A stretch of 64,000 nucleotides of DNA from Kiritimatiellia bacterium (GTDB lineage Bacteria; Verrucomicrobiota; Kiritimatiellia; RFP12; UBA1067), in contig JAQIBS010000107.1 of NCBI GenBank assembly GCA_027858965.1, positions 35,617 to 99,616 of the forward strand, in the 5' to 3' direction. Shown here in pieces: positions 16,729 to 59,582 of this stretch. How positions within the stretch are numbered: position 1 is the stretch's first letter; each line of letters begins with the position of its first letter. The translations under genes and the position numbers were made by a program. Under the pieces are notes generated by a model that was not told the DNA's origin, did no database searches, and saw only the letters and a list, made by a program, of their open reading frames with translations.

Positions 16729-16807
16729 CATTGGGCCCATATGGCTCATACGGCCCACAGCGCAGCCTGTCGCCGCAGGCGACTCTCTTCATACGGCCCA
16801 TAATAAA

Positions 16808-17125
16808 ATGAGTACGATTTACGATAGAATGCAGAACCACCCGGAGATCACGCCTTTTCGTCAACGGGTGTTTGATGCTCTGCTGGAGGTGCCATGTGGT
16901 TATGTGACCACCTACGGTGCACTGGCCCGACGGATTAACTGCGGATCGGCTCGGGCGGTTGGCGGAGCTCTGCGCCATAATCCCCTGGCTCCTGAGGTGC
17001 CTTGCCATCGTGTGGTTGCCTCGGATCTGACCATTGGCTTCATGTTTTGCCTGACGCAACATATGCAAAGGGGTTCGCTTCGTAATGAACACTGTCAACT
17101 GTCAACTGTAGACTGTAGACTGTAG
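16808..17125 (+). CDS. Methylated-DNA-protein-cysteine methyltransferase family protein (DNA-binding/active-site domain only)
   Basis: The VPCHRVV active-site motif. The last ~9 codons and the stop are encoded by a CTGTAGA-type tandem repeat. Confidence 0.7.
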   Translation: MSTIYDRMQNHPEITPFRQRVFDALLEVPCGYVTTYGALARRINCGSARAVGGALRHNPLAPEVPCHRVVASDLTIGFMFCLTQHMQRGSLRNEHCQLSTVDCRL

Positions 17126-17135
17126 ACTGTAAATA
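17087..17135 (+). repeat. Tandem CTGTCAA/CTGTAGA heptamer repeats encoding the C-terminus and stop of the MGMT-family ORF
   Basis: CTGTCAACTGTCAACTGTAGACTGTAGACTGTAGACTGTAAATAGG. Confidence 0.8.
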
Positions 17136-17144
17136 GGAGATAAG

Positions 17145-19013: not shown

Positions 19014-19075
19014 TTCGGCGCACCGAATTACGTAATTCCGCTTCCGGCTTCGAGCTTCGCTTTTACGCCGTGACA
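19011..19075 (+). repeat. Conserved 3' element beginning at the stop codon: TAATTCGGCGCACCGAATT hairpin followed by ATTCCGCTTC...; a second copy lies at 60887-60950 after purM
   Basis: Both elements start exactly at a TAA stop codon. Confidence 0.65.
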
Positions 19076-19343
19076 AGTCGCGGAATAGAGCAGTGAAGGG
19101 CCGATTTATAAGCAGGCTGCGCCTGAGTTGGTTGCGGGAGATAAAGGTGGATGATTACATCGGGCTTCGAGTTCAAAAGCTGAGTCCATCAGGTATTTGA
19201 ATATGCCTGCTTGTGTTTCTTTCGTTCAAAACACGCAGTGTTTTCTCCTGATTCAGCGATGTTGGATTCAGGTATGTTGTTGGAATAAAGAATTTGGAAA
19301 ATATCAAGGATCTTGATTTAGATGAAGGGAAAGCTGAATCAGT

Positions 19344-19826
19344 ATGAAAGCATTGATACAAAGAGTGAGTGAGGCTTCGGTTGAGGTTGATGGAAAGGTC
19401 GTTGCGCAGATAGAGCAGGGGCTCTTGATCCTGTTGGGGGTCACCCTCTCTGATGGATCGGCTGAGGTGGATCGGCTGGTTCGTAAAATCCCCGCACTGC
19501 GAATCTTTGAAGATGCCGGTGGCAATATGAACTGTTCGGTAGAGGATATCGGCGGCAGCGTGATTATTGTTTCGCAGTTTACTCTTTATGCGAGCACAAA
19601 GAAGGGCAACCGTCCGGGTTTTTCAAATGCCGCTCCACCGGAGCAGGCTGAGCCTCTCTACGAAGAGCTGGTGGCAAAGCTCCGCTCAGTGATGGGCGTA
19701 AATCGGGTTGGCACCGGCATCTTTGGAGCACACATGAAGGTGCGCCTCTTGAATGATGGCCCGGTGACGATTGAGTTGTTGTCTAAAGCTGTGGCGTTTA
19801 AGGATTCGAGTAAGTTGGTCGGTTAA
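19344..19826 (+). CDS. dtd: D-aminoacyl-tRNA deacylase
   Basis: MKALIQRVSEASVEV...GLLILLGV and the SQFTLYA motif. Confidence 0.9.
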   Translation: MKALIQRVSEASVEVDGKVVAQIEQGLLILLGVTLSDGSAEVDRLVRKIPALRIFEDAGGNMNCSVEDIGGSVIIVSQFTLYASTKKGNRPGFSNAAPPEQAEPLYEELVAKLRSVMGVNRVGTGIFGAHMKVRLLNDGPVTIELLSKAVAFKDSSKLVG

Positions 19827-20010
19827 GTGTATCCGATTCTCTCAACTCTTGTCGCGGAAAACAAGAAGCTTAGGCAGCCCTACACAAAATTGCTTCTGAG
19901 AAGCAATCCTACATTCCAAAACTTTTCTTCCATTGAATCACGTTGCAATTGCATTAAGTGGTCTTCTTTTCTATACTTTTATATCTTATAGATAACTAGG
20001 AGAATTTAAA

Positions 20011-21276
20011 ATGGCGTACGATAAAATCAAAGTCCCGGATTTTGGCAAAAAGATTACGATGAATGCCGGTGGAAAACTTAATGTGCCTGACCAACCGATT
20101 ATTCCATTTATCGAAGGTGATGGTATTGGTGCTGATATAACTAAAGCGGCCATGATTGTATGGGATGCCGCTGTCGAAGCCGCCTATGGCGACAGCCGTA
20201 AGATTGCCTGGATGGAGGTTTATGCGGGAGAGAAGGCCATTGATACATATGACGCTGAAACATGGCTGCCCAAAGAGACCCTGGAAGCTTGCCGCGAATA
20301 TCTGGTCTCAATCAAAGGACCTTTGACTACACCGGTTGGTGGAGGAATCCGCTCTCTGAATGTAGCTCTGCGCCAGGAACTGGACTTGTATGTATGTCTA
20401 CGCCCCGTTCGCTGGTTTGACGGAGTTCCCTCTCCGGTCAAGAAACCTGAGCTGACTAATATGGTTATCTTCCGTGAAAACACCGAGGATATCTACGCCG
20501 GTATTGAGTGGATGGCAAAGAGTGATGATGCCAAAAAGATTATCGCTTTTATGCAGGAGGAGCTGGGTGTAGATAAGATCCGTTTCCCTGAAAGTTCATC
20601 TATCGGTATCAAGCCGGTCTCTGAAGAGGGCACTAAGCGTTTGGTTCGTGCTGCTATTGATTACGTAATTGCTAACGATCGTAAGAGTATGACTCTGGTT
20701 CATAAAGGTAATATCATGAAGTTTACCGAAGGTGGCTTCCGTGACTGGGGTTATGAGGTGGCCAAAAAGGAGTATGGCGCTAAGTTGATGGGTGATGGCC
20801 CCTGGCGCTCTTTCAAGAACCCGAAGACCGGCCGTGAGATTGTTGTTAAGGATTGCATTGCCGATGCATTCCTTCAGCAGATTCTGACTCGTCCAGCTGA
20901 GTATGATGTGATTGCAACATTGAACCTGAATGGTGATTACATCTCTGATTCGTTGGCTGCCTGTGTTGGCGGTATTGGAATTGCTCCAGGCGGTAATATC
21001 AATTATGTAACCGGTGTTTCTATCTTTGAAGCAACTCACGGTACAGCACCGAAGTATGCCGGTCTGGATAAGGTTAACCCTGGCTCGCTGATTCTCTCCG
21101 GTGAGATGATGTTGCGTTACATGGGCTGGACAGAGGCTGCTGATAAAATCATCCTGGCGATGGATAAGGTCATCGGTGCTAAGACTGTGACCTACGACTT
21201 TGCACGCCTGATGGCGGGTGCTAAGCTGACATGCTGCAGCGATTTTGCTAAGGCGCTTGCTGCTGCAATGAAGTAG
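20011..21276 (+). CDS. icd: NADP-dependent isocitrate dehydrogenase
   Basis: Roughly 420 aa and the IDH signature [22 protein letters not shown]...NLNGDYISD. Confidence 0.9.
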
Positions 21277-46057: not shown

Positions 46058-48475
46058 TCAGGGTGCCTGCTCCAAAGCATCCATGAGCTGAATACGCAGG
46101 GCATCCATAAGTGAGCGGTCCTTGGCAATCTGCCACTCCAAACTTTTTGCCGTAACGCTTTGCAGCACTTTATCCACACCGGCACCAAGCAGTTTCTCTG
46201 TCCGCATCACCCAGGGTGCATTACTCTCACTCTTCTGAATATTTGTAACTTTGTTGCGTAACATGCATAAGAGTTCATAGTCCTGTACCCCTTCGCGGAT
46301 GGCCTCGCTGTGTTTGCCTTCCATTACAGAGTTCGGCCCCACAAAATAGGGGGAGTATTCAGCATATCTTTGCGTATAGGCCTGCCAGGAGTTGCCAATG
46401 CCGCCCCCGCATCCAAATGCCCAGAAGAATGTTCCCTCAGCTCCTGTTTTAAAGGCCTGCCATGCCTGCGCCCGATGATATGTAATTGGGTCCAGTCGTT
46501 TGGCCGGGCCGCTGCATGAGTAGAGCCAGAGTGTTTTGCCTGCTGTGCGCTGTTCCAGATAAAAATCCCGGAAGGGCTTGCCTTGCGCCAGCAGCATCGG
46601 TGTGTTGGGGCAGAGTATGTCATTTGCCGCAAACATGGCAGGGTCACCCTTATGTGGCTCCCTGTAAGTTGGATCGACAAAAAGGAGAACTCCCGGATTA
46701 GCCGCCTTAATCGCCGCTGCCCAGGTGATAATTTTTTTATCCTGCTCAAGTGCATGCGGTTCATCCACAAGCAGAATCACCAGCTGATTTGCTTTAAGCC
46801 CTTGCGTATCCATATGTTTTACCCAGGCCGTCAGCCAGCTACCAACCATGGTGTTAAAACGTGTTGTTCCCATTTTCTCGCTTTGAAATGAGCTTCCCAC
46901 ACTGAAAAAGACGCAGTAATTCCGTGCGCCATGCCAGCGTGCCACCCACTCGTCCCAAACCGCGAAATCTAAATCAGTCTCATTTGTAAGGTTCCCCGCC
47001 TTGTCAAAGGTGCCCCCTTTTGGAAATACAGCGGAGGTTGCCCAAGGGGAATCCACATACATATCGCGCATCAGTGCTAAATTGGAATCCAGGTTGTTCG
47101 GTGCTTTATAATAACTGGCATTGCCTTGCACATAGTCCCAGCCTCCCACATGTAAAGCTGGGTGTTGAGGAAGGTCTATATTCCGTAGCCGGATACTTAG
47201 CGGAATGGCCTTTTTGAAAGACCCATCTGTTGATGTAATATTTATCACTCCCTTGGTGGTTTGCGCGGCACCCTGTGGACGATGGCAGGATATCCAGAGT
47301 TGGCGTGTACAGCCTCCGGGAATGGTGATACTAAACGCTCCTGTATTGTCAGGCTTCAATGCTTTCAGTGCTGCTGCCACAGGTTTACGGCTTCGGGTAT
47401 CGGTGAAAAGCACCTCGCGTATCTCAATATTAAGGTTTTTGGGAAATCCCTTCAGGGTGATGACAACTTTCAGTGGACTCTTTTGCGGCTGGCTGATATT
47501 GAATGTCTCACCGCGTACTTCATTGCGAATCATATCAAGAGTCAGTTCTTTGATATCCGAGCCAGCGGGGGGTATGTCTGTTAGCTCAAGAGGATCCCAG
47601 CGGTTGTTCTGCCAGATCAGGGGAGCTTTGATGCCTGCTCCTTGCAATACTTTTGCATGCAATGACAGAATTGATCTATGCAAGCCGTCATAGGGAAGGA
47701 TGGTTTGGCGGTCATCAGTAAATGCATTGGCAAAGGCGGGTATCTGCTCTCTCAACAAGGCTGCTTTGGATTTGGTTTTTGTGAGTGCCGAGGCATTCAG
47801 TAGAGTCTCTGCCTGCGAGAGGATGGTATCCAGGTCAGCTCGAAGTCGTGCAGATACTCCAGAACGGACACAGTGTTGCGCGTAAAAAAGTTTTGGGTCT
47901 GTTGTTGTCGCGCCTGGAATAGGTTCTTTCAGCCACGCATCATTACCGCGTTGGATTTCAATCTCATCGACAAAACAGAAGTTTTCTGCGGCGGCAACTA
48001 CGCACACATAGCGTCCGTAGCCCTTCAGTTCCTCTGTTAAATATCGAAATTGTGCATATCCTTCCCGCGGAGGATGAGGAGCTCCCGCAGCTGTTACACA
48101 AAGATCACCCAAAGAGCTCCATGTTTTGCGGTCATTGCTGACCAATACATAAAGGCATTCCGGCCATGTGACTCCGGCAACACCCGCTGCGCAGCTCCAG
48201 GAAATTCCGCGAATTGGTTCCACTTTGCCAAGGTCAATGGTTACTATAGCCGGGGCTGACCTGCTCCAGCCGACGGTACTTTTCTGAGTCCAAAAATAAC
48301 CTTCGGAATAGATGCCGTCTGTCAGTTGCTTGATATCATCGGCATCTGTGCAGTGCGGATAGTTGGGTGCCGGGGAGAGCGTATAGGATTTATGCAGTGC
48401 AATGTTCTCAGCAGGGGCACACCTGCCAGCTTCAGCCAAGGCACATAACAATGTGATTAAAATATACATCCTCAT
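46058..48475 (-). CDS. Secreted F5/8-type-C (discoidin)-like plus DUF4091-like glycoside-hydrolase-associated protein
   Basis: Signal peptide, a discoidin-like N-terminal region and a C-terminal region paralogous to the C-terminus of the 29272..32598 protein (shared VDEP/TDEP and W-rich blocks). Confidence 0.6.
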   Translation of the reverse strand: MRMYILITLLCALAEAGRCAPAENIALHKSYTLSPAPNYPHCTDADDIKQLTDGIYSEGYFWTQKSTVGWSRSAPAIVTIDLGKVEPIRGISWSCAAGVAGVTWPECLYVLVSNDRKTWSSLGDLCVTAAGAPHPPREGYAQFRYLTEELKGYGRYVCVVAAAENFCFVDEIEIQRGNDAWLKEPIPGATTTDPKLFYAQHCVRSGVSARLRADLDTILSQAETLLNASALTKTKSKAALLREQIPAFANAFTDDRQTILPYDGLHRSILSLHAKVLQGAGIKAPLIWQNNRWDPLELTDIPPAGSDIKELTLDMIRNEVRGETFNISQPQKSPLKVVITLKGFPKNLNIEIREVLFTDTRSRKPVAAALKALKPDNTGAFSITIPGGCTRQLWISCHRPQGAAQTTKGVINITSTDGSFKKAIPLSIRLRNIDLPQHPALHVGGWDYVQGNASYYKAPNNLDSNLALMRDMYVDSPWATSAVFPKGGTFDKAGNLTNETDLDFAVWDEWVARWHGARNYCVFFSVGSSFQSEKMGTTRFNTMVGSWLTAWVKHMDTQGLKANQLVILLVDEPHALEQDKKIITWAAAIKAANPGVLLFVDPTYREPHKGDPAMFAANDILCPNTPMLLAQGKPFRDFYLEQRTAGKTLWLYSCSGPAKRLDPITYHRAQAWQAFKTGAEGTFFWAFGCGGGIGNSWQAYTQRYAEYSPYFVGPNSVMEGKHSEAIREGVQDYELLCMLRNKVTNIQKSESNAPWVMRTEKLLGAGVDKVLQSVTAKSLEWQIAKDRSLMDALRIQLMDALEQAP

Positions 48476-48495
48476 ATCGTTTTTCCTTGTTGTTG

Positions 48496-48628
48496 GCGTT
48501 ATGGGCCAGATGGGCCGAAGGGGCCTAATGTGAGTCGCCTTTGGCGACGAGGTGCGTAGCCGCTTATCTTCGCCGACGGCGAAGAGGGAAACACATAGGG
48601 CTCATGTGGCTCATCTGGCCCATAACGC
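48496..48628 (+). mobile_element. MITE-like element (133 bp) with ~21-bp terminal inverted repeats GCGTTATGGGCCAGATGGGCC / GGCTCATCTGGCCCATAACGC and internal hairpins
   Basis: The TIRs are reverse complements of each other. The whole element is about 93% identical to the reverse complement of 52001-52124. Confidence 0.7.
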
Positions 48629-48632
48629 TATC

Positions 48633-51281
48633 TTAATCCAGTATTTCCCGTACCTTAACGGCAAGATCCTGGATTGTAAAAGGCTTCTGAATGAAGTGCA
48701 CGCCCTTCTCGATAAGGCCCTGTTTGATGATGATGTCGGCCGTGTAGCCGGACATGAACATATGCTTGATTTCCGGGTGCAACAGGGTGAGATGGGTGGC
48801 TAGGTCCAGGCCGTTCATTTGGGGCATGACCACGTCGGTCAGCAGCAGACTGATCTCTTCGGTGTACTTTTCCGCCACCGCGATGGCCTCGTTCGGGAGG
48901 CCAGCCTTCAGAACACGGTAGCCCAGACCTTCCAGCATTTGCTTGCCCAGTTTCAGGATCGACGCTTCGTCCTCCACGAGCAGTATGGTTTCGTGGCCGC
49001 GGAGGGCCGCTTTCGCCGAGTCGGAGGTCGGTAGTTGCACGGCTTCGCCAAAGTGCCGGGGCAGGCAGAGTCTGAAGGTTGTCCCTTTTTCCGGTATGCT
49101 GGTGAGGTTGATGCAACCTTTGTTCTGCATGACGATGCCGTACACAGTGGCCAGGCCCAGCCCCGTGCCCTCGCCGACTTCCTTGGTGGTGTAGAATGGC
49201 TCGAAGATGTGTTTGATCGTCTCCGGATCCATGCCGCAGCCGGTGTCGCTGACAGAGATCGTCACGTATTCGCCGGGGACGAGATCCGTGTTCTTGGCGC
49301 AGAAGTTAGCGTCGGCGGTCAGGGTGCTGGTCTCGACCTTGAGCTTGCCCACCCCCGCGATGGCGTCGCGGGCGTTGACGCACAGGTTGGCCAGGATCTG
49401 GTCGATCTGCGCGGGATCCATCTTGACGGTTGTGTCTGCTGCCGTCGGCTGCCAGGTGAGGTCTATATTCTCGCCGATCAGCCGCCGCAGCATCATGAGC
49501 ATCCCGGACACGGTTTCGTTCAGGTCGAGCACTTTGGGCGTCATGGTCTGCTTGCGGGCGAACGCCAAGAGTTGGCGGGTCAGGTCGGCTGCACGGTTTG
49601 CGGCCTTCCGGCTCTCGGTCAGATCGTTGTGCAGCGCTGTCTCGGGATCGATCTCGTTCAGGGCCATATTCGTATAGCCGAGGATGACCTGGAGCATGTT
49701 GTTGAAATCGTGCGCCACGCCGCCGGCCAGTCGTCCGATGGATTCCATTTTTAGTGCCTGTTGCAACTGGGCTTCTGTTTTGCGCTGTTCGGTGATGTCT
49801 ATATACGCGCCAAGGATGCCGATGATTTGCCCTTGCGAGTTGCGCAGGGGAACTTTGCTCGTGAGAAGGATAATGGTTTCCCCTTCGGGTGTTGTCTGGG
49901 GTTCTTCTCTATCTAGAATCGTTTCGCCCTCGATGACCCGGAGGTCATCCGCGTTGTACATCTCCGCCAGATCTTTCCACTCCATATGGATATCATTTTT
50001 CCCAACGATTTCTTGCGGATTGGAAAAGCCCGCATCGAGCGCGAACGCTTTGTTGCATCCCAGATAAAGGAGATTGATGTCTTTCCAGAATACCCGGACG
50101 GGGATTGTGTTAAGGATGTCTTTGATGAGTTTCTGCGATTCGCGCAGCGCATCTTCGGCCTGTTTTTGTTCGGTGATGTCGCGCTTGACGGCCACGTAAT
50201 TGACGGTTTTGTCTGCGTCGTCGAGCACTGGAGAAATCGTTGCTTCTTCAGTATAGAAACTTCCGTCCTTGCGTTTGTTGACAAAGCGTCCTTTCCAGGT
50301 TTTGCCGTCGGTGAGGGTCTGCCACATATCGCGATAGAACGCCTCGTCCTGCTGACCGCTCTTCAAGATGCGTGGGTTTTTTCCTATTGCCTCTGTGCAC
50401 GAATAGCCCGACGTCTGTTTAAAGGCCGGGTTGGCGTACTGGATGGCTCCTTCCTCATCGGTGATGAATATGGTCTCGGCGGCCTGTTCGATGGCCTGCA
50501 TCAAACGCTCGTGTTTGGCCTCGGACTGCTTGTCATTAGTAATGTCGCGTAAGACATGCACCGCGCCGGTATATTTTCCGTCTGCATCCAGAATGGGATC
50601 TATAGTCACCATATACCAGAAATCACCAATCTGAAGTTCCTTGGTTTCGCGTTGCAAACTTTCTTTTGCTCGCACAAAGGGACAATCAGCGATCGGCCCG
50701 GTTATGCCATGCACGACTTCCCAGCACCGGGTTTCCCCCTCGCGAGCGGAGGATGGGAACAGCCGGTCCGCCTGCCTGTTCGAGCGCACGATCCGATGCT
50801 CCTCATCGAGTAGCCAGATTCCGTCGTTGGAGGCGTTAAATGTGCTGTGCCATTCCTTCGCTATCCGGGCCAGCGTCTCCTCGGACTGCTTGCGCTCGCG
50901 TCGCTCGACGGTTTCGTGCAGCCCGCGTTTGATCGCCGGGCCTAACCGTGTGAGATTGTCCTTCATGATGTAGTCGCTCGCGCCGGCTCGCATGGCGGTT
51001 ACCGCGACATCCTCGCCGATGGTGCCGGAGATGAGGATGATCGACAGGTCCAGCTCGCGCTCCTTTAGCAATTTTATCGCCTTTATCCCATCGAATTGCG
51101 GCAGGTTGTAGTCTACCAGAATGATATCCCAGCCTTGGTTGAGTTGGGCTAGATAATCGGCTTCCGTCTGCACTACCAAAATTTCGGGAGCAAAGCCTTC
51201 CGCCACCAATGTCTCGCGGATCATCTCGACATCCGCCGGATCATCTTCCAGATACAGGATACGCAACGGTTTTTTTTTCAT
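48633..51281 (-). CDS. Hybrid sensor histidine kinase: REC, PAS x3, HisKA, HATPase_c, REC
   Basis: N-terminal receiver (ILYLEDDPADVEM...DYNLPQFDG), H-box AGGVAHDFNNML, G-box SDTGCGMD and a C-terminal receiver (ILLVEDE...DVVMPQMNG). Confidence 0.85.
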   Translation of the reverse strand: MKKKPLRILYLEDDPADVEMIRETLVAEGFAPEILVVQTEADYLAQLNQGWDIILVDYNLPQFDGIKAIKLLKERELDLSIILISGTIGEDVAVTAMRAGASDYIMKDNLTRLGPAIKRGLHETVERRERKQSEETLARIAKEWHSTFNASNDGIWLLDEEHRIVRSNRQADRLFPSSAREGETRCWEVVHGITGPIADCPFVRAKESLQRETKELQIGDFWYMVTIDPILDADGKYTGAVHVLRDITNDKQSEAKHERLMQAIEQAAETIFITDEEGAIQYANPAFKQTSGYSCTEAIGKNPRILKSGQQDEAFYRDMWQTLTDGKTWKGRFVNKRKDGSFYTEEATISPVLDDADKTVNYVAVKRDITEQKQAEDALRESQKLIKDILNTIPVRVFWKDINLLYLGCNKAFALDAGFSNPQEIVGKNDIHMEWKDLAEMYNADDLRVIEGETILDREEPQTTPEGETIILLTSKVPLRNSQGQIIGILGAYIDITEQRKTEAQLQQALKMESIGRLAGGVAHDFNNMLQVILGYTNMALNEIDPETALHNDLTESRKAANRAADLTRQLLAFARKQTMTPKVLDLNETVSGMLMMLRRLIGENIDLTWQPTAADTTVKMDPAQIDQILANLCVNARDAIAGVGKLKVETSTLTADANFCAKNTDLVPGEYVTISVSDTGCGMDPETIKHIFEPFYTTKEVGEGTGLGLATVYGIVMQNKGCINLTSIPEKGTTFRLCLPRHFGEAVQLPTSDSAKAALRGHETILLVEDEASILKLGKQMLEGLGYRVLKAGLPNEAIAVAEKYTEEISLLLTDVVMPQMNGLDLATHLTLLHPEIKHMFMSGYTADIIIKQGLIEKGVHFIQKPFTIQDLAVKVREILD

Positions 51282-51295
51282 ACAGACTCTTCTTT

Positions 51296-51760
51296 CTAGT
51301 GCGTCAACGACGGGCTATTCGAATTGGTGAGCGGCGATTCATTCAATGCCACCCAGAAGATACCCAGCGACTTGACCGCATCGATAAACTGGTGAAAATC
51401 AACTGGCTTAACCACATAGGCGTTGACCCCGAGTTTGTAGCTGGTAATCAAATCTCGTTCCTCCCGGGACGACGTAAGCATGACAACGGGCAGCAGCTTC
51501 ATCTTCTCGTCGGCCTTGATTTGGCGTAACACATCGAGGCCGTTGACTTTGGGTAGTTTGAGATCTAGAATCACCACGGCAGGGTTGCAGTCGTTCCGCG
51601 TCTGGAAGTTTCCTCGGCGATACAGATAATCTAAGGCCTCTTCACCGTCACGGGCGACGTCGATCCCGTTAGATAACTGGTATTCTTTAAGGGCGGTAAG
51701 GGTCAGTTCGACATCCTTGGGATCGTCTTCAACTAGGAGAATCCGTTTTATTTTGTTCAT
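51296..51760 (-). CDS. Single-domain response regulator (CheY-like receiver)
   Basis: ILLVEDDPKDVEL...ILDLKLPKVNG...VVMLTSS...KP receiver motifs. Confidence 0.85.
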   Translation of the reverse strand: MNKIKRILLVEDDPKDVELTLTALKEYQLSNGIDVARDGEEALDYLYRRGNFQTRNDCNPAVVILDLKLPKVNGLDVLRQIKADEKMKLLPVVMLTSSREERDLITSYKLGVNAYVVKPVDFHQFIDAVKSLGIFWVALNESPLTNSNSPSLTH

Positions 51761-51940
51761 AATCGTCCTTCTTTCTGTGCGAGCTAAGGGCCAACGCGAA
51801 AACTTATAAATTTATTTCCTCGCAGACCCTAAGATGCAGAACCCCAGGTACGGGATATGGCTTTGTCCAGTGAAACACCCGAGAACGGATCATGCATATC
51901 AATTTGAAATGAATAATAATTTATGTATATAGAATTATGC
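51761..51940 (-). promoter_or_regulatory. Leader/promoter region of the RR/hybrid-HK unit; about 85% identical to the leader of the sensor gene at 59001-59175
   Basis: Duplicated block GATATGC(A/G)(T/C)GATCCGTTCTCGGGT...GGACAA(C/A)GCCATATCC...GCATCTTAGGGTCTGCG(C/A)GGAAATAAAT...CACAGAAAGAAGGACGA, placed directly before each start codon. Confidence 0.55.
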
Positions 51941-52000
51941 CTTTTGGCACAAAAAGAGTCAAGCCTATTTTTCCTGTTCAATAGACGCGCGTTGCTGATA

Positions 52001-52124
52001 GCGCTATGGGCCGTATGAGCCCTATGTGTTTCCCTCTTCGCCTTTGACGAAGACAAGCGACTACGCACCTCGTCGCCAAAGGCGACTTACATTAGGCCCC
52101 TTCGGCCCATCTGGCCCATAACGC
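52001..52124 (-). mobile_element. Second copy of the MITE-like element, inverted relative to 48496-48628
   Basis: The reverse complement aligns with the left copy. The TIR GCGCTATGGGCCGTATGAGCC ... GGCCCATCTGGCCCATAACGC is present. Confidence 0.7.
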
Positions 52125-52190
52125 TATCAGCAGAGAGCACCACAACTTACAATTTACAGAGCGCAGCGACTCCACTCGGATACCCTTTTT

Positions 52191-54164
52191 TCATAGAGAT
52201 TCGCCCGAGTCGTCTTTTGCAACCGAATCATGCGCTGTTATTCCCGCGTCTTCAAGCTGCGTGCACAAGTTCTTGATAATCAGCTTCAGCTCAGCCATGC
52301 GGTTTTCACGGCCCGCCATGACATTGACTACTTGTCGAAGTTCCTTCGTGCGCTCTAAAACTTCGCTCTCAAGAGTTGCTTGATGGCGCGCAAGAGCCTT
52401 TTCGGCCTGCTTACGGGCAGTGATGTCGCGCCCGATGCCTAATATGCCGAGCAGACTGCCGTCATGTCCGTAAATTGGCGTTTTAATGGTTTCGATCTGC
52501 TCAACATGGCCATCACTCAAAAAGGTTAGCTCTTCTTCGTTCATCGAGGGGCCGCCTTTTTTTATGGCGCGACGGTCATTTTCAAGGAAAAAATCCGCTG
52601 TATCTTTCGGCATGAAGTCATAGTCCGTGCGTCCGACGATGCTTTCTTTTTCAGCCCCAAAAAACTGTTCGAACCGCTGGTTACAAAGAAGATAGACCCC
52701 CTTGTCATCCTTCAACCACATCAGATCGGGACTGGTATCCACGACATCGCGTAGCATTTTACGGCTCTTATCGAGTTCCATTTCCGCTTGTTTTTGTTCC
52801 GTAATATCCTGATTGGTGCCGACCATACGTTCGGGATGACCGCCTTTATTGTAGAGAACATTCGCGTGAGCTCGGATCTGCCGGATCTCCCCATCAGGAC
52901 GAATGATGCGGAGGGAGGTGTCGTATTCATTTTTGCCTTTCACCGCCGCGCTGATTTCGGCATCCGCACTCTCCAGGTCGTCCGGGTGAACGCAATGCTT
53001 CCAGGCCTCATACGCGCCGCCGAATGCGTTCCTGGAGACCCCGTAGATTTCATACATTCGGTCGTCCCAGACCAATTGATTGGTGATCAAATTTAAATCC
53101 CACACCCCGATGCCGCCCGCCTGTGTTGCAATATTAAAGCGTTGGTTGGCGGTATGCAGCGCGACGGTATGTTTGCGGACCTCTCTTTTCAGGAAAATGA
53201 TCCAAATGAACACTCCTGCTGTAACCAACAGAAAAATGCAAATGGTAAATATGAAATAATTTCGTATTCGTGACCAGTCTGTGGAGTTGTCAAGCGGGCT
53301 GAGCCATTGGGTATGGATTCGGCGGTATTCACCGGAGGCATGGAGTTCCGCCAAACCGGTGTTGATCAGGTTTAAGAGTTCCGTCCGTCCGTGGGGCACG
53401 GCCAAGCAGTATTCGAACGAAACAAGACGCGGTTCGGCGACGTGCAGGTGGGTCCATTGGTTTTTCCTGATCCAGTAATTTCCCTGAATCATGGAACAGA
53501 TCGTGTAATCAACCTCTCCATTTTGAAGTAGAGCCAGCGCCTGTTGCGGATCAGTAACGGGAACCAGACGGGATGAAAGATTCTGTTTCAAGGCAAAGTC
53601 GTGTGTTATGTCGCCTTCAACAACAGCCACCCGGCGGTTTTTCATCGCATCGCGCGAGTCATACCGAGGGGAATCATTCCGGGCGAAAACGGCCTGGTGG
53701 TTCAAAAGGAGCGGTGAGGCAAAATCCAGCAGCTGTGCGCGGTTTTTTGAATAATACATGGTTGCGATGTCTAAGTGGCCTGAATTGACCTTTTGTCGCA
53801 CCTGATTCCAGGGCGTCAGCTCCAAAACAATATTTATCCCGGTCTGGCGCGATAGCGCTCGAATCAGATCGATATTAAATCCGGCTGGCCGGCCTTTTTT
53901 ATCGATAAACTCAAAGGGATAGAAGTCATGGTCACCCGCATAGACAAGAATGTTGGATCTTTCATTTTCATATCCAATGGTTTCCATCCACTTTTTGTGT
54001 ATTTGGTGGGCTGTTCCGTCGGGGTTAACAAGGGAGAAGGGCGGATAACACGGTTCCGCGGCGGAATGCAACGGCTTACCCTGCAAGGGAACGGTACAGA
54101 ATAAAAGCGAGAGCAGTATCACAGAATAAACCAGAACGGAGGGTTTTGGACTCTTTCTATTCAT
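52191..54164 (-). CDS. Kinase-less sensor: periplasmic family-3 solute-binding domain, TM, two PAS domains, and a C-terminal signalling-helix tail
   Basis: Signal peptide, an SBP_bac_3-like region, the TM helix FIFTICIFLLVTAGVFIWIIFL, PAS motifs, and termination after ERTKELRQVVNVMAGRENRMAELK with no HisKA or HATPase domain. Confidence 0.7.
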   Translation of the reverse strand: MNRKSPKPSVLVYSVILLSLLFCTVPLQGKPLHSAAEPCYPPFSLVNPDGTAHQIHKKWMETIGYENERSNILVYAGDHDFYPFEFIDKKGRPAGFNIDLIRALSRQTGINIVLELTPWNQVRQKVNSGHLDIATMYYSKNRAQLLDFASPLLLNHQAVFARNDSPRYDSRDAMKNRRVAVVEGDITHDFALKQNLSSRLVPVTDPQQALALLQNGEVDYTICSMIQGNYWIRKNQWTHLHVAEPRLVSFEYCLAVPHGRTELLNLINTGLAELHASGEYRRIHTQWLSPLDNSTDWSRIRNYFIFTICIFLLVTAGVFIWIIFLKREVRKHTVALHTANQRFNIATQAGGIGVWDLNLITNQLVWDDRMYEIYGVSRNAFGGAYEAWKHCVHPDDLESADAEISAAVKGKNEYDTSLRIIRPDGEIRQIRAHANVLYNKGGHPERMVGTNQDITEQKQAEMELDKSRKMLRDVVDTSPDLMWLKDDKGVYLLCNQRFEQFFGAEKESIVGRTDYDFMPKDTADFFLENDRRAIKKGGPSMNEEELTFLSDGHVEQIETIKTPIYGHDGSLLGILGIGRDITARKQAEKALARHQATLESEVLERTKELRQVVNVMAGRENRMAELKLIIKNLCTQLEDAGITAHDSVAKDDSGESL

Positions 54165-54177: not shown

Positions 54178-56133
54178 CTAAATCGTTATTTTTTCCATGT
54201 TATTGGTTAGTTTTGGGAGTGAGAAATAGAAGGTGGACCCTTCGTTCAGCACACTCTCGGCCCAAGTGCGGCCGCCGTGACGTTGGATGATGCGCTGCAC
54301 ATTGGCCAGCCCGATGCCGGTGCCTTCAAATTGTTCCATGCTATGTAGACGCTGAAAAACCCCGAAAAGTTTTTCGACATACTTCATATCGAACCCGACG
54401 CCGTTATCACGGATGAAGAAGATGGTTTCGTGCTCATTCTGCGTATATCCCATTTGAATTTTCGCCTCGTCGCGCGGCCTGGTAAACTTTAGCGCGTTGG
54501 AGAACAGATTCGTCAGCACTGCATGCAGCAGAACCCGGTCAGCGTTGGCATGCGGCAGGGGAGCGAGGTCCCAAAGGATTCGCCGGCCCTGTATATCGGG
54601 GGTCAAGCCGTTGATAACCTTCTTCACCAGCGCATCGAGATTCACCGGCTTCCTGTGCAGCGCTTTGCGTCCCGTCCGCGAAAAGTCCAGTAGACCGTCA
54701 ATCAATCGGCCCATCTGCACGGCGGATTCGGAAATAAAGGTAAGATGCCGCCGGGCCTTTTCATCGAGATTCACTTGATCGTTATTTTGTAGCAACTCGG
54801 AAAATCCCGTGAGATGGCGGAGTGGCGCACGCAAATCGTGCGAGACCGAGTAAGCGAAAGCTTCCATCTCCTTGTTTGCGTCCTTAAGGGCTTGTGTGGT
54901 TCGCTCCAGACGGACTTGTGCAGACTGCAGATCTTCCAGCAGGTTGATCATCGCGCTGTTGAGTTGCTCCGCCTCGTTTGTTCGCGTGGTCAGTTCCGCG
55001 GTCCGCTCCTCAACGCGCTTCTCGAGCCGGGCATGCGCGGTCTCCAATTCTGCCTGCGTCCGTTTAAGCTCAGTGATGTCCACCCACTGGCATATAACGT
55101 TCGTCAGTTGTCCTTTGTCGTCCAGTATGGGGAACATTGAGACATCGATGGATAGATTGGGTGCGCCGTCGATGTCCCCGTCGTCGACATCTGCGGCCCG
55201 CCAGATCATACTGAAGCGACTGGACCTGTGTTTTTCGAAGACGGCCAGTACCTGGGGCGTGACCCCCTGGGCCTTCAAATTCATGTCTTTGAGAACATTG
55301 TATTTCCCCACGAGCTTCTCGTCGGTTAGGTTCAGTGTTTTCCGCAAAGAACTATTCGTCCTTATGATCGTTCCCTCCCTATCTGAGATCCACATGGAAA
55401 AGGGGCTCATGTTGATGACTGTATCGAGAAATGTGTTAGTGGTGTGGGCCTCTCTCTCCTGCTGTTTGCGTTGCTCAATTTCGTGCTCCAGGGTACGCGA
55501 GTGCGACTCCAGCTTCTCTATAAGGGGGGGCCCAAGTCGGGATAACAGCGCCACGCCGACCAGAATAACAAGCATGGCAAAGCCGAGTGCCGCCATTCCT
55601 GACCTAATGAATGGCGTGCGAATCTCCGCGATGTCGATCTTTGCCACAATCCCGAGGCCCAGTATGGCGACCGGCTCGTAGGCGGCCACTACCGTTTCGC
55701 CCCTATAATCGAGGCCTATGAGGGTTCCTGACATTCCCTTGAGTGCCCGACGCATGGGTTCGGCCAGGCTCGAAGCGAAATCCAATGGGGGAGGATGCCC
55801 GACACCGCCGTGTCGATGCCGGAGGATGAAATTGATGGATTCGCCATCGCGTCGTGCCAGTGTGAATTCGCCGGTCTCTCCGATGCCTGCAAAGCGTCGA
55901 TGCGCATCGACAATCTGACTTAATGTCGTCGACTGGGGGTTGTGGTCGGTAGCAATACTTCCATCTTCCCGCTTCGCATTGGAGTCATGTCGTGCGATCG
56001 CCTCAATCAAACATGCCTGGCTCTGCGCTGTGGCTATCAGCATCTGTCGATGGCTATTGAGATTATGGCGATAGAGAATGGTGGACATCACTATCAGAGA
56101 CATGGCGCAGGCTCCTACCATAGTGGCTGCCAT
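54178..56133 (-). CDS. Sensor histidine kinase (periplasmic sensor, TM, PAS, HisKA, HATPase_c)
   Basis: ERTAEL linker, H-box AYSVSHDLRAPLRHL, N/G boxes (IRDNGVGFD, GTGIGLANV). The start was set at the internal ATG at 56133 to avoid overlap with the upstream gene. Confidence 0.8.
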   Translation of the reverse strand: MAATMVGACAMSLIVMSTILYRHNLNSHRQMLIATAQSQACLIEAIARHDSNAKREDGSIATDHNPQSTTLSQIVDAHRRFAGIGETGEFTLARRDGESINFILRHRHGGVGHPPPLDFASSLAEPMRRALKGMSGTLIGLDYRGETVVAAYEPVAILGLGIVAKIDIAEIRTPFIRSGMAALGFAMLVILVGVALLSRLGPPLIEKLESHSRTLEHEIEQRKQQEREAHTTNTFLDTVINMSPFSMWISDREGTIIRTNSSLRKTLNLTDEKLVGKYNVLKDMNLKAQGVTPQVLAVFEKHRSSRFSMIWRAADVDDGDIDGAPNLSIDVSMFPILDDKGQLTNVICQWVDITELKRTQAELETAHARLEKRVEERTAELTTRTNEAEQLNSAMINLLEDLQSAQVRLERTTQALKDANKEMEAFAYSVSHDLRAPLRHLTGFSELLQNNDQVNLDEKARRHLTFISESAVQMGRLIDGLLDFSRTGRKALHRKPVNLDALVKKVINGLTPDIQGRRILWDLAPLPHANADRVLLHAVLTNLFSNALKFTRPRDEAKIQMGYTQNEHETIFFIRDNGVGFDMKYVEKLFGVFQRLHSMEQFEGTGIGLANVQRIIQRHGGRTWAESVLNEGSTFYFSLPKLTNNMEKITI

Positions 56134-56290
56134 AGCCACCAACCTGTCCCGCGCCCCCCTGTTCTTTGCAAAGGATTTCTTAGACAGGATTACAGGATTA
56201 ACCCGTCTCCGCCCGCAAGCGGGGCTACGCCGTGGCACAGCAGGATTATTATGCTTCGTTGTATTGCATTTATCTTTATAAATTTTTTTG

Positions 56291-58999
56291 CTATTCAAAA
56301 TCGCCCTCCGCACTCTCGACGGGCGCATGGCCGAGGTCGATGACCTGACTACGCAGACTCTCGTTTACCTTCTTCAGCTCTACCATACGATTTTCCCGCC
56401 CCGCCATGGCGCTAACAATCTTCTTCAGCTCGGCGGTCCGCCGAGCTGCCTTCTCTTCCGCCAGTTTCTTTTCGGTGATATCCATGCAGAAGACGATCAC
56501 CCCCGCGATGTTACCGGCTGCGTCGCGATGCGGAATCTTGTCGGTAATATACCAGTGCGTATCACCAGCAGCGGTGTGCAGGGGTTCAATAATCCCGAGC
56601 TTGGGCTGTCCTGATTGGATAACCTCGAGATCGTCTATGCGGAACCGTTCTGCCTCGTCGGGAAAGATCTCGGAGTCTGTCTTGCCTTCAATGTCGGCCA
56701 CGGTCATCCCGACAGATTCGGAGGCAGTCCGATTGACACGGAGGATTCGGCCTTCGGTATCTTTGAACCATATCATCGCACGCACCGAATCAAGGATGAC
56801 CTGTTGTTCAGAGCTTATCTTGGTAATCTCAGCGGTTCGTGCTGTCACCAGTTCCTCCAGATGGTCGCGGTACTTGATCAGTTCCGCTTCTGCCCGCTGG
56901 AGTTCAGAAAGCATTCTAGACTGTTGGATTGCACTGAAACTCAACGTTGAAATAATTGCAGAAAGTTTAGAGTAAAAGCGCATGCCGGCCTCCGCTTCTT
57001 GCCGACTGAATCTAGGGACTTTTTCGAATGCCGCAAGGTATTCCGTCTCATCGAATCCGTATTTCCGGGCCTGCTTCCGGAACAACTCGACATCGGGTGT
57101 TTCGTCAGTGTAAAAGAACTGACCGGTAAATACATTACCGACATGCTGGTCCCCTATCATAAGGGGTGTGACCATATCCCACATGTGGTTCTTGCAGTGG
57201 TATGCCTTAAAGGTTCCGAATGCTACCCCTTTGGTGAGGCAGGTGTCACTTTCAAGGCAGTTCTTGCATGATTCGGGATGAGCCCTGTGGAATTTCGTGC
57301 AGATATCCTGCCAGCCGACGGCCACTAAAATATTTCCGGAAAGGTCGAGTACAGCGCCCAACATGCCGGTCATCTGATAAAACTCTTCCATAATCGACTG
57401 CAGAACGTTGGTGTCAATAATGTCGGCAAGTTCAAGCGTACCGATATCGCCATCGGGTTCGATAATCGCTTTGAGCTTATTCCGGATGGTGGTTTCACTT
57501 TGGCGCAAGGCCTCCTCCGTCTGCTTGCGCTCGGTGATGTCGGAGTGCGTGCCTACCATGCGTAGCGGTTGGCCGGCGGCATCGCGGCTGACCACCATGC
57601 CGCGAGAGAGAATCCACTTGTAGCTGCCGTCTTTGCAGCGCATCCGAAATTCATTGACATAGATGGGAGTACGGTCGGCCAGATAGTTCTGAAAATTCGC
57701 CAGTGCACCCGCTAGATCGTCCGGATGGACAATTTTTTCCCACTCCTTAAACAGGTTCGCGATTTCGCTTTCGGCATACCCAAGTATTTCTTTCCAGCGT
57801 TTGGAAAAACGCACCGTTTTGGTTGGAATTTCCATATCCCATACACCATCACCGGCACCTTCGAGCGCAAACTTCCAGCGTTCCTCACTGGTCCGCAGGC
57901 GCGTTTCCTCCTTTTTCTGCCTGGCCAATTCACGCCGGGAAAACTTCAGCATTTGTTTTCGCCACAGCAGGCCGACGCTCAGCATGGCCGTTAGCAACAG
58001 AAGAGCGATGATGGCTGCGGTGGCCCAAGTCTCTTTGCGAAGCGGGCCGTAAATTTCCTTCTGATCAACCTTAGTCACCAAGAACCATGGTGTGCCCGGA
58101 ATCTTTCGCAACGCCGCTAAAACCGGGATGCCTCGGCAGTCTACCCCTTCCACTACGCCTTCCTTCCCCTGGACGGCCTTTGCTGCGGGCCGGTTCGGAT
58201 CGTTGATTGGAATCCGCAATGCCAGCGCAGCGTTGGTGCGATGGCGAAGATCATTTAGAAAAACCACCTCGTTGTCCTCGCGCCGGACGAGCAACGTTTT
58301 CGCCGTGGAGCTGGGTGTCGGCCAGCTCTGGATGAGGGGGTAGAGAAATCGCTGCGGATCTACAACCAGAAGCAACACGCCGTCCGCCGGTTGGTCTGCC
58401 TGCGAGTTGATACCGAATGGAATTAAGAAGGATAAATGGGTCAACTGGTTGGAATGGCAGTGATGCAGATCCTCAAAAACGACTTCCCTTGCATGCAACG
58501 CGGCTCCAACATGCTCGTCGATATGGGAGTCTTGCAGGAGGGAAGCATCAGCCGGCACCGCCAGTCGGGCTGCGCCGTGTGCGTCAAACAAGATCACTTG
58601 GCTGTAGTCATAATCCTGCTGAAATGTGGTCATCCACTTGAGCAACTCATCGCGATTGGCCGCGTCATCCGGTTCTGTGAAAAATTGCTGAATTTCATCC
58701 CAAACCATGTGCGTCTTGAAAATGATATTGGCATTGTTGTGCCGGTTCTTTATCCATCCCGCAATCTGGTTGACCTTCAAGTCCGCGATGGCAGCCAGCG
58801 TCTCCGTAGCGGTGCGATGGGTTTCGGCTTGTTGGCGTTTGTAATACACCCAGCAGGAGGGACCAATGGTCGCTATGCATATCAATGCGAGGGCGAAAAA
58901 GACACAGCGAAACCGGCGATCGACTACAGCGTTTGGAGTTGAGGATGGAGAAAGTGGCGATGCGTCTTGTGTCTTGGCAGGCGATTTGGCTTTCTTCAC
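56291..58999 (-). CDS. Kinase-less sensor: TM, Cache-like periplasmic domain, TM, PAS, PocR-like Cys-rich domain, PAS, and a C-terminal signalling-helix tail
   Basis: It ends after RRTAELKKIVSAMAGRENRMVELKK with no kinase core. The start was reassigned to the GTG at 58999, which follows the GAAAGAAGGACGA ribosome-binding site conserved with the RR gene leader. Confidence 0.65.
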   Translation of the reverse strand: MKKAKSPAKTQDASPLSPSSTPNAVVDRRFRCVFFALALICIATIGPSCWVYYKRQQAETHRTATETLAAIADLKVNQIAGWIKNRHNNANIIFKTHMVWDEIQQFFTEPDDAANRDELLKWMTTFQQDYDYSQVILFDAHGAARLAVPADASLLQDSHIDEHVGAALHAREVVFEDLHHCHSNQLTHLSFLIPFGINSQADQPADGVLLLVVDPQRFLYPLIQSWPTPSSTAKTLLVRREDNEVVFLNDLRHRTNAALALRIPINDPNRPAAKAVQGKEGVVEGVDCRGIPVLAALRKIPGTPWFLVTKVDQKEIYGPLRKETWATAAIIALLLLTAMLSVGLLWRKQMLKFSRRELARQKKEETRLRTSEERWKFALEGAGDGVWDMEIPTKTVRFSKRWKEILGYAESEIANLFKEWEKIVHPDDLAGALANFQNYLADRTPIYVNEFRMRCKDGSYKWILSRGMVVSRDAAGQPLRMVGTHSDITERKQTEEALRQSETTIRNKLKAIIEPDGDIGTLELADIIDTNVLQSIMEEFYQMTGMLGAVLDLSGNILVAVGWQDICTKFHRAHPESCKNCLESDTCLTKGVAFGTFKAYHCKNHMWDMVTPLMIGDQHVGNVFTGQFFYTDETPDVELFRKQARKYGFDETEYLAAFEKVPRFSRQEAEAGMRFYSKLSAIISTLSFSAIQQSRMLSELQRAEAELIKYRDHLEELVTARTAEITKISSEQQVILDSVRAMIWFKDTEGRILRVNRTASESVGMTVADIEGKTDSEIFPDEAERFRIDDLEVIQSGQPKLGIIEPLHTAAGDTHWYITDKIPHRDAAGNIAGVIVFCMDITEKKLAEEKAARRTAELKKIVSAMAGRENRMVELKKVNESLRSQVIDLGHAPVESAEGDFE

Positions 59000-59000
59000 T

Positions 59001-59175
59001 TCGTCCTTCTTTCTGTGTGAATTTATTTCCGCGCAGACCCTAAGATGCGGTAACCCAAGTATAGGATATGGCGTTGTCCAGAGAAATACCCGAGAACGGA
59101 TCGCGCATATCAATCTGACGTAAGCACTGATTTATCTATAAAATAGTTTGCCTCTCGGCATAAAAATAGTCAAGT
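59001..59175 (-). promoter_or_regulatory. Leader/promoter of the first sensor gene; duplicate of 51761-51940
   Basis: See the 51761-51940 entry. Confidence 0.55.
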
Positions 59176-59484
59176 CATTTATTCTGAAAACGGCAGTTGA
59201 AATCGTTAAAGACGTTGTAAGTGGAGCCAAAAATGGCTCCCGCGCTAACTTTATAGAGGGTTGCCAGTGATAATGTAGCCCAAGCATCCTGCTTGGCTTA
59301 TTATTGAGGCAAGCCGGTCTTCGCCCTTTGGGCTACGCCCCGACACGGCAGGATGCTTGCATTACTGTCCCCCGTACTCGCACACGTACTCCTGCACTCA
59401 AATCTCTTTTCCCGCTATCCTCATCAGGTTTAACCGCAGCCTCAATTTCGGTTCTTCCGACTTTTTAATGGGTGAATCATCGCT

Positions 59485-59582
59485 ACTCGGTATCGGGATC
59501 GCTATCGCTATCGGACACAGCAACCATCGGATTAAATTCGATACCGATGCCGATACCGATTGCGATATCGACAACAAAGACC
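59485..59582. repeat. Inverted GGTATC/GATACC hexamer arrays (potential long hairpin) in the divergent region between the sensor gene and purM
   Basis: CGGTATCGGGATCGCTATCGCTATCGG ... CGATACCGATGCCGATACCGATTGCGATATCG. Confidence 0.65.

Follow-up and report, generated by a model that had tools for sequence, protein, structure and literature searches.

Known intergenic repeat families

Bacterial MITEs include the Correia elements of Neisseria, RUP of Streptococcus and ERIC of the enterobacteria, and Correia and RUP are associated with TA duplications. REP-type units are 20–40 bp long and carry GTAG or CGTC end tags, while in the BOX elements of Streptococcus pneumoniae a 45 bp boxB lies between boxA and boxC. 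For REP, ERIC and Correia elements a role as RNA stem-loops has been proposed, in which they terminate or stabilise transcripts or shield adjacent genes from one another. REPINs are described as REP doublets mobilised by RAYT transposases (PMC3116915, PMC3337134).

The 64 kb window (the whole stretch of DNA that was analysed) contains two full copies and two fragments of a repeat family which, on its sequence features, is an undescribed one of the MITE/REPIN-like kind. Like MITEs, it is short (100–300 bp) and non-coding, with long terminal inverted repeats that form a long hairpin, and its copies, like theirs, number tens to hundreds, are often partial and lie between genes in either orientation. 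It differs from MITEs in its arms, which are made of a variable number of 9 nt tandem units, and has no similarity to Rfam families; neither a target-site duplication nor a cognate insertion sequence sharing its ends was recognised in the DNA examined. With REPINs and BIMEs it shares an extragenic location, high copy number, two inverted palindromic units paired in a hairpin, a mosaic make-up with optional modules and solo ends, and copies that remain closely similar from one related organism to another. However, the arms start with GCGTTATGGGCC or GGTGCGCTTCGC and lack a GTAG or CGTC tag at the unit ends, the sole GTAG being in the centre of the core; they are also longer than the 20–40 bp of a REP, and no RAYT gene was seen in the window or in ten neighbouring genes. 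The family resembles BOX in its modular, intergenic, stem-loop structure, in which conserved end modules enclose an internal subunit repeated a variable number of times, but the subunit is only 9 nt, lies within both arms, is unrelated in sequence and is found in another phylum. The two full copies, A and B, are very probably independent members of this dispersed intergenic family, and the genes for a response regulator and a hybrid histidine kinase that lie between them are an old component of a sensor-kinase operon rather than cargo bounded by the repeats.

Two inverted copies in the window

Copy A (bases 48496–48632, forward strand; nhmmer E = 7e-44) consists of a 133 bp core followed by TATC, without the outer arms of the family. 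It is located exactly between a stop codon and the ribosome-binding site of the following gene, with the core 4 nt past the stop codon of the hybrid kinase gene (48633–48635) and 20 nt ahead of the start of a GH123-like gene. The gap to the stop codon, given as 5 bp in the initial annotation, is this TATC, which belongs to the family consensus. Copy B (51975–52178, reverse strand) lies between the end of a sensor gene (SBP-PAS) and the promoter of the response regulator gene. The interval 52001–52124 first assigned to it is the core, inverted with respect to copy A; the true extent is approximately 51975–52169 (the match to the extended-family model, E = 3e-60), and inclusion of the neighbouring GGAGTCGCTGCGCTCTGT module (52161–52178) takes it to 52178. 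The core of copy B is flanked by conserved outer arms, TATCAGCA...CTATTGAAC on one side and GGTGCTCTCTGCTGATA on the other.

The initial annotation had recognised two inverted elements of about 125–135 bp, and an inverted-repeat search of the window bore this out, returning arms of 127 nt (48488–48614 and 52006–52132) that were 91% complementary. The copies (48496–48628 and 52001–52124) were 91% identical ungapped and 94% (94.4%) identical gapped (BLAST E = 7e-47), with one additional 9 nt unit (GGCTCATCT) in copy A. The 12-mer GCGYTATGGGCC was found exactly at all four ends of the two copies and, with one mismatch allowed, matched the window seven times where 0.6 matches would be expected. 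Both copies are imperfect palindromes, and each is predicted to form a long hairpin. Terminal inverted repeats are present as first noticed, but the arms of copy A are 50 nt long (74% complementary) rather than about 21 bp. The folding energies of the copies ranged from −65 to −89 kcal/mol (z-scores −8 to −10).

A dispersed intergenic family

In the JGI metagenomes, an exact 21-mer scan returned 52 loci. Thirty of these were in Ga0307990 and Ga0307929, which carry a related Kiritimatiellae-like organism, and the family profile found 37 further sites in these two metagenomes, approximately 17 of them full length. The best protein matches were Kiritimatiellae MAGs. All of the sites were intergenic, with the flanking ORFs in tandem, convergent or divergent arrangement, and when the site table was read by hand no orientation bias relative to the direction of neighbouring genes was apparent. 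The adjacent genes were ordinary (MarR, FabG-like SDR, HAD, TrmB-type methyltransferase, DUF456). Pairs of copies a few kb apart were found elsewhere in both orientations, direct in L010 and inverted in L046. Outside the element, DNA comparison showed no similarity between the metagenome loci and the window; at the translated level a single orthologous gene was found, in L010 only, encoding a GDSL lipase (compare 6689–8047 in the window), and the DNA downstream of it was unrelated. Extrapolation gives a density of roughly one intergenic site per 16–25 kb in uncultured Kiritimatiellae-like genomes.

A strict two-ended pattern, which the window's own copies do match, had no matches in a genome collection of species representatives, and the most conserved 18-mer gave eight singletons in unrelated taxa. 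The species representatives therefore include neither the source species nor the relative. Viral contigs gave only four singleton matches, consistent with chance. There was no Rfam match in the whole window at gathering thresholds, or in 51700–52250 at E ≤ 1, and none of the papers listed by a single shallow full-text literature search on Kiritimatiellae had a title concerning a repeat family.

The family core is 109–135 bp and long forms reach approximately 290 bp. The arms of the core are made of one to four tandem 9 nt units, ATGGGCCNN in one arm and GGCYCATNN in the other, with two small hairpins in the centre between them. Many copies also have outer arms (GGTGCGCTTCGC-GGGTGCTCTATGCTGATA and the complement) and an extra solo end, and conservation in the flanks reaches past the boundaries given in the initial annotation. 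The number of units varies independently on the two arms, producing mosaic copies, many with unbalanced arms. In all 17 copies compared (17/17) one strand gave the better fold, owing to G-T wobbles that the copies share. Compensatory covariation was seen in only two of 23 pairs, the variation among copies being too small to speak for or against a selected structure, and the hairpin could simply be inherited from a master copy.

Copies A and B are no more alike (94.4% identity) than each is to copies from the other organism (B and L049, 95.0%; A and L012, 93.3%) and, judged by these identities, they are not a recent pair.

The signalling operon in related contigs

The hybrid histidine kinase gene (48633–51281; REC, three PAS, HisKA, HATPase and REC domains) and the gene for a single-domain response regulator (51296–51760) are both on the reverse strand, as are the features at 51809–51976, 52191–54164 and 46058–48475 described below. 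P0001 is the closest full-length homologue of the kinase. Upstream of the response regulator gene, bases 51809–51976 duplicate, at 80%, the promoter and leader of the operon (59020–59186), and include a promoter-like site, TTGACT-17-CATAAT, at 51962–51934. The next gene (52191–54164) encodes a sensor without a kinase domain (SBP_bac_3 and two PAS domains). Truncation of a sensor kinase gene by copy B is unlikely, as the SBP-PAS protein keeps the MAGRENRM(A/V)ELK tail of the intact upstream PocR sensor. The GH123-like gene (46058–48475) is the first of a downstream region that is not syntenic with either contig L001 or contig L060.

L001 was 100% identical to the window over 49800–53710 and near-identical to 59189, with two substitutions and one 114 bp difference. 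Copy B was present in the same place in both L001 and L002. Copy A was absent from L001, where a RecQ-like helicase gene is found 2 nt past the kinase stop codon. In L060, from the related organism, genes for a PocR-PAS kinase, the response regulator and the hybrid kinase were contiguous in the same order and orientation as in the window, at approximately 89% nucleotide identity, and copy A, copy B, the SBP-PAS gene and the duplicated promoter were all missing.

Inverted family copies bracketing a 3.4 kb segment of two genes with their own copy of the promoter could be the ends of a composite transposon that moves these genes together, and the initial annotation had suggested a segment either mobilised or invertible. 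A composite transposon is extremely improbable here. Copies A and B encode nothing (no Pfam match), and at 94% identity they differ in structure by a 9 nt indel and by outer arms found only in B; as noted above, copies from another organism resemble them as closely as they resemble one another. There is no duplication flanking the unit from A to B. In addition, L001 has the segment with B only, and in L060 the two genes occupy the same position in the operon without either copy.

Inversion of the segment as a switch, in which A and B would recombine (homologously or site-specifically) and flip the two genes with their promoter, is also very unlikely. In principle, inverted homology of about 127 bp at 91% could sustain rare RecA-dependent inversion, and the promoter-like site is inside the segment. 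However, a single orientation, that of the window, was seen in all three contigs spanning B (L001 and L002) or A (L003), which come from two other samples. The contig breaks, at 49816 and 49444, are within the kinase gene and away from the repeats. None of the surrounding genes that were tested has a recombinase domain, and a flip would set the response regulator and kinase genes antisense to the upstream sensor genes. Dispersal of the family, the absence of A from L001 and of both copies from L060, and the single orientation all argue against the cassette first proposed. A dispersed intergenic family, together with synteny in a relative without the flanking copies, is essentially the outcome that the initial annotation had itself named as counting against its proposal, the copy number in the window's own genome being an extrapolation.

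At approximately 49800, about 1.2 kb inside the kinase gene, identity between the window and L001 falls abruptly from 100% to about 87%. This points to homologous recombination within coding sequence, and the kinase gene is a recombination mosaic from about this position. The gene is followed by three different neighbourhoods: copy A and GH123-like genes in the window, RecQ-NusA-IF2 in L001 and a MoxR/Bat operon in L060. That PAS-rich two-component genes are mosaics, with strain-level junctions in coding sequence and three downstream neighbourhoods, is the more biologically interesting point, and it bears on the reshuffling of sensory repertoires and glycan-utilisation islands in these bacteria. 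The repeat family itself brings to light no novel mechanism of mobility or switching.

Probable mobility of the family

Neither a cognate transposase nor an autonomous element with the family ends was found in the window, in neighbouring genes or at any of the 52 metagenome loci, and none of the ten neighbouring genes scanned (0/10) was a transposase gene. No consistent direct repeat was recognised at the core or outer boundaries of the copies; the TA next to the core belongs to the conserved arm. A search for empty sites, made by all-against-all comparison of the metagenome loci, produced no homologous filled and empty pair. The closest homologue of the GH123-like protein was 72% identical, too distant for the intergenic DNA to be aligned. 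A nested origin, with the core inserted at a TA in an outer palindrome, was considered and rejected, as the uninterrupted sequence TGCTGATATCAGCA was absent from all DNA examined.

The most likely mode of spread, present or past, is that of a non-autonomous element which depends for its copying on a transposase gene located elsewhere. Individual copies would then decay, and the number of units may shift by slippage.

Possible roles of the copies

A transcribed copy would form a very stable stem-loop in the RNA. That of copy A would fall between the kinase and GH123-like genes and that of copy B would follow the SBP-PAS gene, ahead of the response regulator's own promoter, and such structures may alter transcript stability or read-through. 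Maintenance of the copies for such a role, with stem-loops terminating or stabilising transcripts or shielding adjacent genes, is compatible with their being members of a dispersed family but is itself unlikely. Consistent with it are the very stable hairpins, the location of A between a stop codon and the next ribosome-binding site and of B between a gene end and a promoter, and the similarity of copies across the two organisms, 82–95% compared with 66–89% DNA identity for the orthologous genes compared. However, neither A nor B has the T-run signature of a terminator, no orientation bias relative to transcription was apparent in the site table read by hand (A and B are opposite), the numbers of arm units are unbalanced in many copies, and there is little covariation and no Rfam family.

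Both copies are at points where gene order differs from that of relatives, and they may mark or promote rearrangement as dispersed recombination substrates, which would account for their location at synteny breakpoints and would equally be compatible with independent copies of a dispersed family. Three different neighbourhoods follow the hybrid kinase gene in the window, L001 and L060, and copy B adjoins both a 2.4 kb insertion relative to L060 and the duplicated promoter. We regard this role as quite unlikely, as the junction between the window and L001 is within the kinase gene rather than at copy A, breakpoints and repeats that are both intergenic will coincide by default, and the partner breakpoints of L001 and L060 showed no element copy.

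The similarity of copies above that of several orthologs, together with the breakpoint location of A and B, is compatible with a long-lived REPIN-like population in the PVC superphylum, upheld by a putative domesticated transposase and with copies doubling as recombination substrates that swap strain-specific blocks. This more elaborate proposal is quite unlikely. If it were true, the more than 48 kb of glycan-degradation genes beginning at copy A would be an example of a swapped block. A single shallow literature search found no report of such a REPIN-like system in Kiritimatiellae.

Small ORFs and family fragments

The independent, dispersed copies have their main value for annotation and assembly, as the family yields spurious ORFs, and the family profile should be useful for MAG curation and strain typing. 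In the window, the ORFs at 48552–48803 and 51829–52068 begin within the elements and have no Pfam match, consistent with spurious ORFs and in agreement with their initial description as translations of the element.

Degenerate relatives had also been noticed at about 11528–11565 and 16736–16806, and the profile E-values identify both as significant family fragments. That at 16726–16813 (forward strand) retains right-arm 9 nt units and a small hairpin, matching the extended-family model over 16728–16813 (E = 1e-8) and the core model over 16726–16763 (E = 2e-6). The other (11520–11548, forward strand) is a solo arm (E = 1e-4 to 2e-4). The 12-mer, with one mismatch, was also found at 5345–5356, a weaker match than either fragment.

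Two inverted palindromic repeats in a sensor-kinase gene cluster

Every gene around the two repeat copies lies on the minus strand. In transcription order, these genes encode a PocR/PAS sensor of 940 aa (56291–59113), a PAS histidine kinase (54178–56328) and an SBP_bac_3 plus PAS sensor without a kinase domain (52191–54164), then, beyond copy B (52001–52124), a response regulator (51296–51760) and a hybrid kinase (48633–51281) and, beyond copy A (48496–48628), a GH123-like protein (46058–48475). Between the kinase stop codon and copy A are 4 nt, and between copy A and the next start codon 20 nt.

The initial annotation placed two inverted elements at these positions, and both were confirmed by an inverted-arm search and by BLAST. 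The repeat search of the window recovered inverted arms at 48488–48614 and 52006–52132 (127 nt, 91% complementary), and copy A used as a query against the window matched copy B with E = 7e-47. The terminal 12-mer GCGYTATGGGCC was exact at all four ends of A and B and, allowing up to one mismatch, occurred seven times in the window where 0.6 occurrences are expected. In a pairwise alignment, A (133 bp) was longer than B (124 bp) by a single 9-nt unit, GGCTCATCT. Both are long imperfect palindromes with folding energies of −65 to −89 kcal/mol (z-scores of −8 to −10 against shuffles), and no canonical T-run terminator was found at either. The two small ORFs that overlie them had been dismissed as translations of the element, and neither had a Pfam match. 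The boundaries first assigned to the elements were too narrow, as alignment of the flanks revealed conservation running past them. Copy B, with partial outer arms (further inverted flanks) and an adjoining GGAGTCGCTGCGCTCTGT module, spans about 51975–52178, while copy A consists only of the bare core, the repeat body with 9-nt units in its arms, and TATC.

Two further features of this cluster were observed. The C-termini of the 657-aa (52191–52330) and 940-aa (56291–56430) kinase-less sensors share the same coiled-coil-like tail, MAGRENRM(A/V)ELK, which points to a shared output or docking module and away from truncation of a kinase. A 168-bp promoter and 5′ leader occurs in two copies that are 80% identical, one ahead of the response regulator (51809–51976) and one ahead of the PocR sensor (59020–59186), and has a counterpart at 5802–6085 in L060, a contig of a related organism. 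Some 75 nt of it form a conserved block, for which modest structure is predicted and Rfam has no match. The 168-bp sequence could be a shared regulatory leader.

The segment between the copies

The 3.4-kb segment between A and B had been read as a possible mobilised or invertible unit. Related contigs were found by exact-protein look-up. L001, a near-identical contig from JGI sample 3300051640, is collinear with the window from 59189 to 49800 and is 100% identical to it over 49800–53710, a stretch in which copy B has the same position; upstream of 53710 only two substitutions and a 114-bp difference separate them. Copy A is absent from L001, in which the end of the kinase gene is followed after 2 nt by a RecQ-like helicase gene and then by nusA, infB, rbfA and truB. 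Copy B is also present in L002, from a second sample, and L003, from the same sample as L001, matches the window from 49444 to 36058 at 99.99%, including copy A.

The contig of the related organism, L060, came from the metagenome in which the majority of element copies lie; where alignable, its nucleotide identity to the window is about 89%. Here, the PocR-PAS kinase, response regulator (154 aa, overlapping the stop of the PocR-PAS kinase gene) and hybrid kinase are contiguous, and A, B, the SBP-PAS gene and the duplicated promoter are all missing. Given the arrangement in L060 and L001, response regulator and hybrid kinase occupy their ancestral position and orientation in the operon. The window lineage differs in having a block of 2.4 kb between kinase and regulator, which comprises the SBP-PAS gene, B and the copied promoter and leader (80% identical to those of the operon).

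The orientation was as in the window on all contigs spanning A or B, and contig breaks fell inside the kinase gene, away from the repeats. A mobile or invertible cassette was therefore not supported, as B occurs without A, both are missing from the relative and a single orientation was found throughout. The repeats also proved to be a dispersed family that forms pairs elsewhere, and synteny of the segment was retained without the flanks.

In the region upstream, the PocR sensor and kinase form one 1185-aa protein in L060 (5968–9525), while the window counterpart (54192–58896) is two overlapping ORFs of 940 and 716 aa with some 2 kb more of sequence coding for PAS and transmembrane regions. This is a case of domain-level reshuffling between relatives.

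A dispersed intergenic repeat family

The exact arm 21-mer GCGYTATGGGCCNNATGRGCC was found in 52 loci in JGI metagenomes, 30 of them from two metagenomes, Ga0307990 and Ga0307929. The remaining loci were singletons in the number that chance predicts, as were four viral matches of this type. A family profile was built from A and B and then from 18 extended copies, and its use on the two metagenomes recovered 37 sites, about 17 of them full length. These loci, from another organism, resemble the window at the DNA level only in the element; at the translated level, one orthologous gene (in L010) was the sole further similarity. In a gapped alignment, A matches B at 94.4% identity, while B is 95.0% identical to the copy in L049 and A 93.3% identical to that in L012. 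As these values are about equal and the latter copies belong to the other organism, A and B are not a recent duplicate pair.

Many copies have outer inverted arms, the left being GGTGCGCTTCGC-GGGTGCTCTATGCTGATA and the right TATCAGCATAAAGAATCA-GCGAAGCGCACCC, and in these an extra solo end and a tail, ...CATAGCGCTATCAGCATAGAGCGCCTATTGATAACTTAGAACTTCCGGTTGTG..., are frequent. The 9-nt units number from one to four, with unequal counts in the two arms of a copy, and truncated copies and solo arms are common. The degenerate relatives reported earlier in the window are indeed family fragments, matched at 16728–16813 by the extended-family model (E = 1e-8), at 16726–16763 by the core model (E = 2e-6) and at 11520–11548 by the family profile (E = 1e-4 to 2e-4). 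In all 17 copies folded, one strand folds better, by a mean of 14.5 kcal/mol, because of G-T wobbles common to the family. Compensatory covariation was nearly nil (2 of 23 pairs), and the element matched no Rfam family.

All copies lie between ORFs of at least 150 aa, in tandem, convergent and divergent settings, and no orientation bias relative to adjacent genes was seen when the table of copies was read by eye. Ten neighbouring proteins were of ordinary chromosomal types, including MarR, SDR, HAD, TrmB-type methyltransferase, DUF456, PAP2-like and kinase, with no transposase among them; neither a transposase nor a recombinase was found among the 29 ORFs scanned in the window. Loci fetched for one copy often contained a second or third a few kb away. 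L010 has two in direct orientation about 3.2 kb apart, L046 has two inverted around one gene with a spacing of about 2 kb, and L030 has four sites within about 2.6 kb. The 3.4-kb spacing of A and B is therefore ordinary for this family. With four sites in the 64-kb window and the extra sites in the retrieved loci, extrapolation rather than counting gives about one site per 16–25 kb, which would put roughly 10^2 sites in a genome. The family is non-coding, dispersed, intergenic, palindromic and mosaic, with a variable number of subunits.

In L030, from the relative, one family copy is interrupted at 3122–3207 by 86 nt of a different element, which carries inverted ends of its own (AGAGCCTATTCGAAAAGGG...CTTTCCGAATGGGCTC). 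TAGCC (5 nt) flanks this insert on both sides and may be a target duplication made by another small mobile element. Intergenic regions of the window (5420–5500, 16660–16715, 17095–17130 and 59480–59560) contain several other short repeats, tandem or interspersed, for example CACAGAG/CACGGAG motifs, three occurrences of TGCGAGAGTTCTAAAG, CTGTCAACTGTAGA runs and ATCGSTATCG runs, and similar arrays lie beside element copies in the metagenome loci.

Relationship to known elements

The family resembles MITE/REPIN-type elements, a kind that is well known (PMC3116915, PMC10969869 and PMC2229807), and by this resemblance it may be described as MITE/REPIN-like. Unlike REP sequences, which have a GTAG or CGTC end tag, its arm ends carry neither. 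No target-site duplication was recognised at the filled sites of family copies, and the TA beside the core belongs to the conserved arm. Nesting of the core by insertion in an outer palindrome was considered and rejected, as the uninterrupted palindrome was never found. The family would be non-autonomous and spread through copying by an enzyme whose gene lies elsewhere, with slippage probably shifting the unit number, and transcribed copies would form stem-loops that could influence read-through or RNA stability.

The best protein matches of the kinase and the GH123-like protein were in MAGs labelled Kiritimatiellae, and the gene content (N-terminal methylation motif, BNR, sulfatase, Laminin_G_3) fits this assignment. 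None of the paper titles listed by a full-text literature search on Kiritimatiellae concerned a repeat family of this type, and at that level the family appears to be previously undescribed in the Kiritimatiellae literature, though of a known kind. Its main value is for annotation, with the recombination mosaics in sensor-kinase genes a secondary one.

A mosaic kinase gene and variable downstream regions

From 53710 to 49800 there is no difference between the window and L001. About 13% of positions then differ as far as the kinase stop, beyond which the DNA is unrelated. The junction, at about 49800, coincides with the start of the HisKA domain, and the part beyond it (48638–49800) is about 87% identical between the two. 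Transmitter domains from the window, L001 and L060 lie at roughly equal distances from one another (78–95% identity per 150-nt bin). The simplest reading of these alignments is homologous recombination between DNA of a diverged relative and the interior of the kinase gene, which brought in a different downstream region. The mosaic may instead reflect a paralogous second locus, or it may be an assembly chimera. L002 ends at 49816 and L003 starts at 49444, which indicates that both kinase variants co-occur in the samples and form an assembly branch.

Three different gene sets follow the kinase. In the window, it is followed by A and then by over 48 kb of DNA with GH123, sialidase/BNR, sulfatase and TRAP-transporter genes, among others, in L001 by RecQ-NusA-IF2 and in L060 by a MoxR/Bat operon. 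Because these neighbourhoods differ, A lies at the edge of a variable region; the actual junction between the window and L001 is about 1.2 kb from A, in coding sequence. The L060 operon (MoxR/DUF58/VWA/BatD, 12624–21023) directly follows the hybrid kinase; in the window, the VWA and BatD genes of this operon (152–5222) stand about 43 kb from the kinase, in the opposite orientation to the segment between A and B.

In-frame length differences between the near-identical contigs were found at 53710–53833, where L001 lacks 114 bp of the SBP domain, and at 50149–50223, where L002 lacks 75 nt beside a PAS-linker direct repeat (50146–50184, 52393–52431 and 52774–52812). Just upstream of the shared promoter, 59190–59243 differs completely from bases 1–53 of L001, where that contig has a short tandem TTCCACTTTTGCTC motif and ends. 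This may be either a variable intergenic repeat array or the second boundary of the shared 9.5-kb block.
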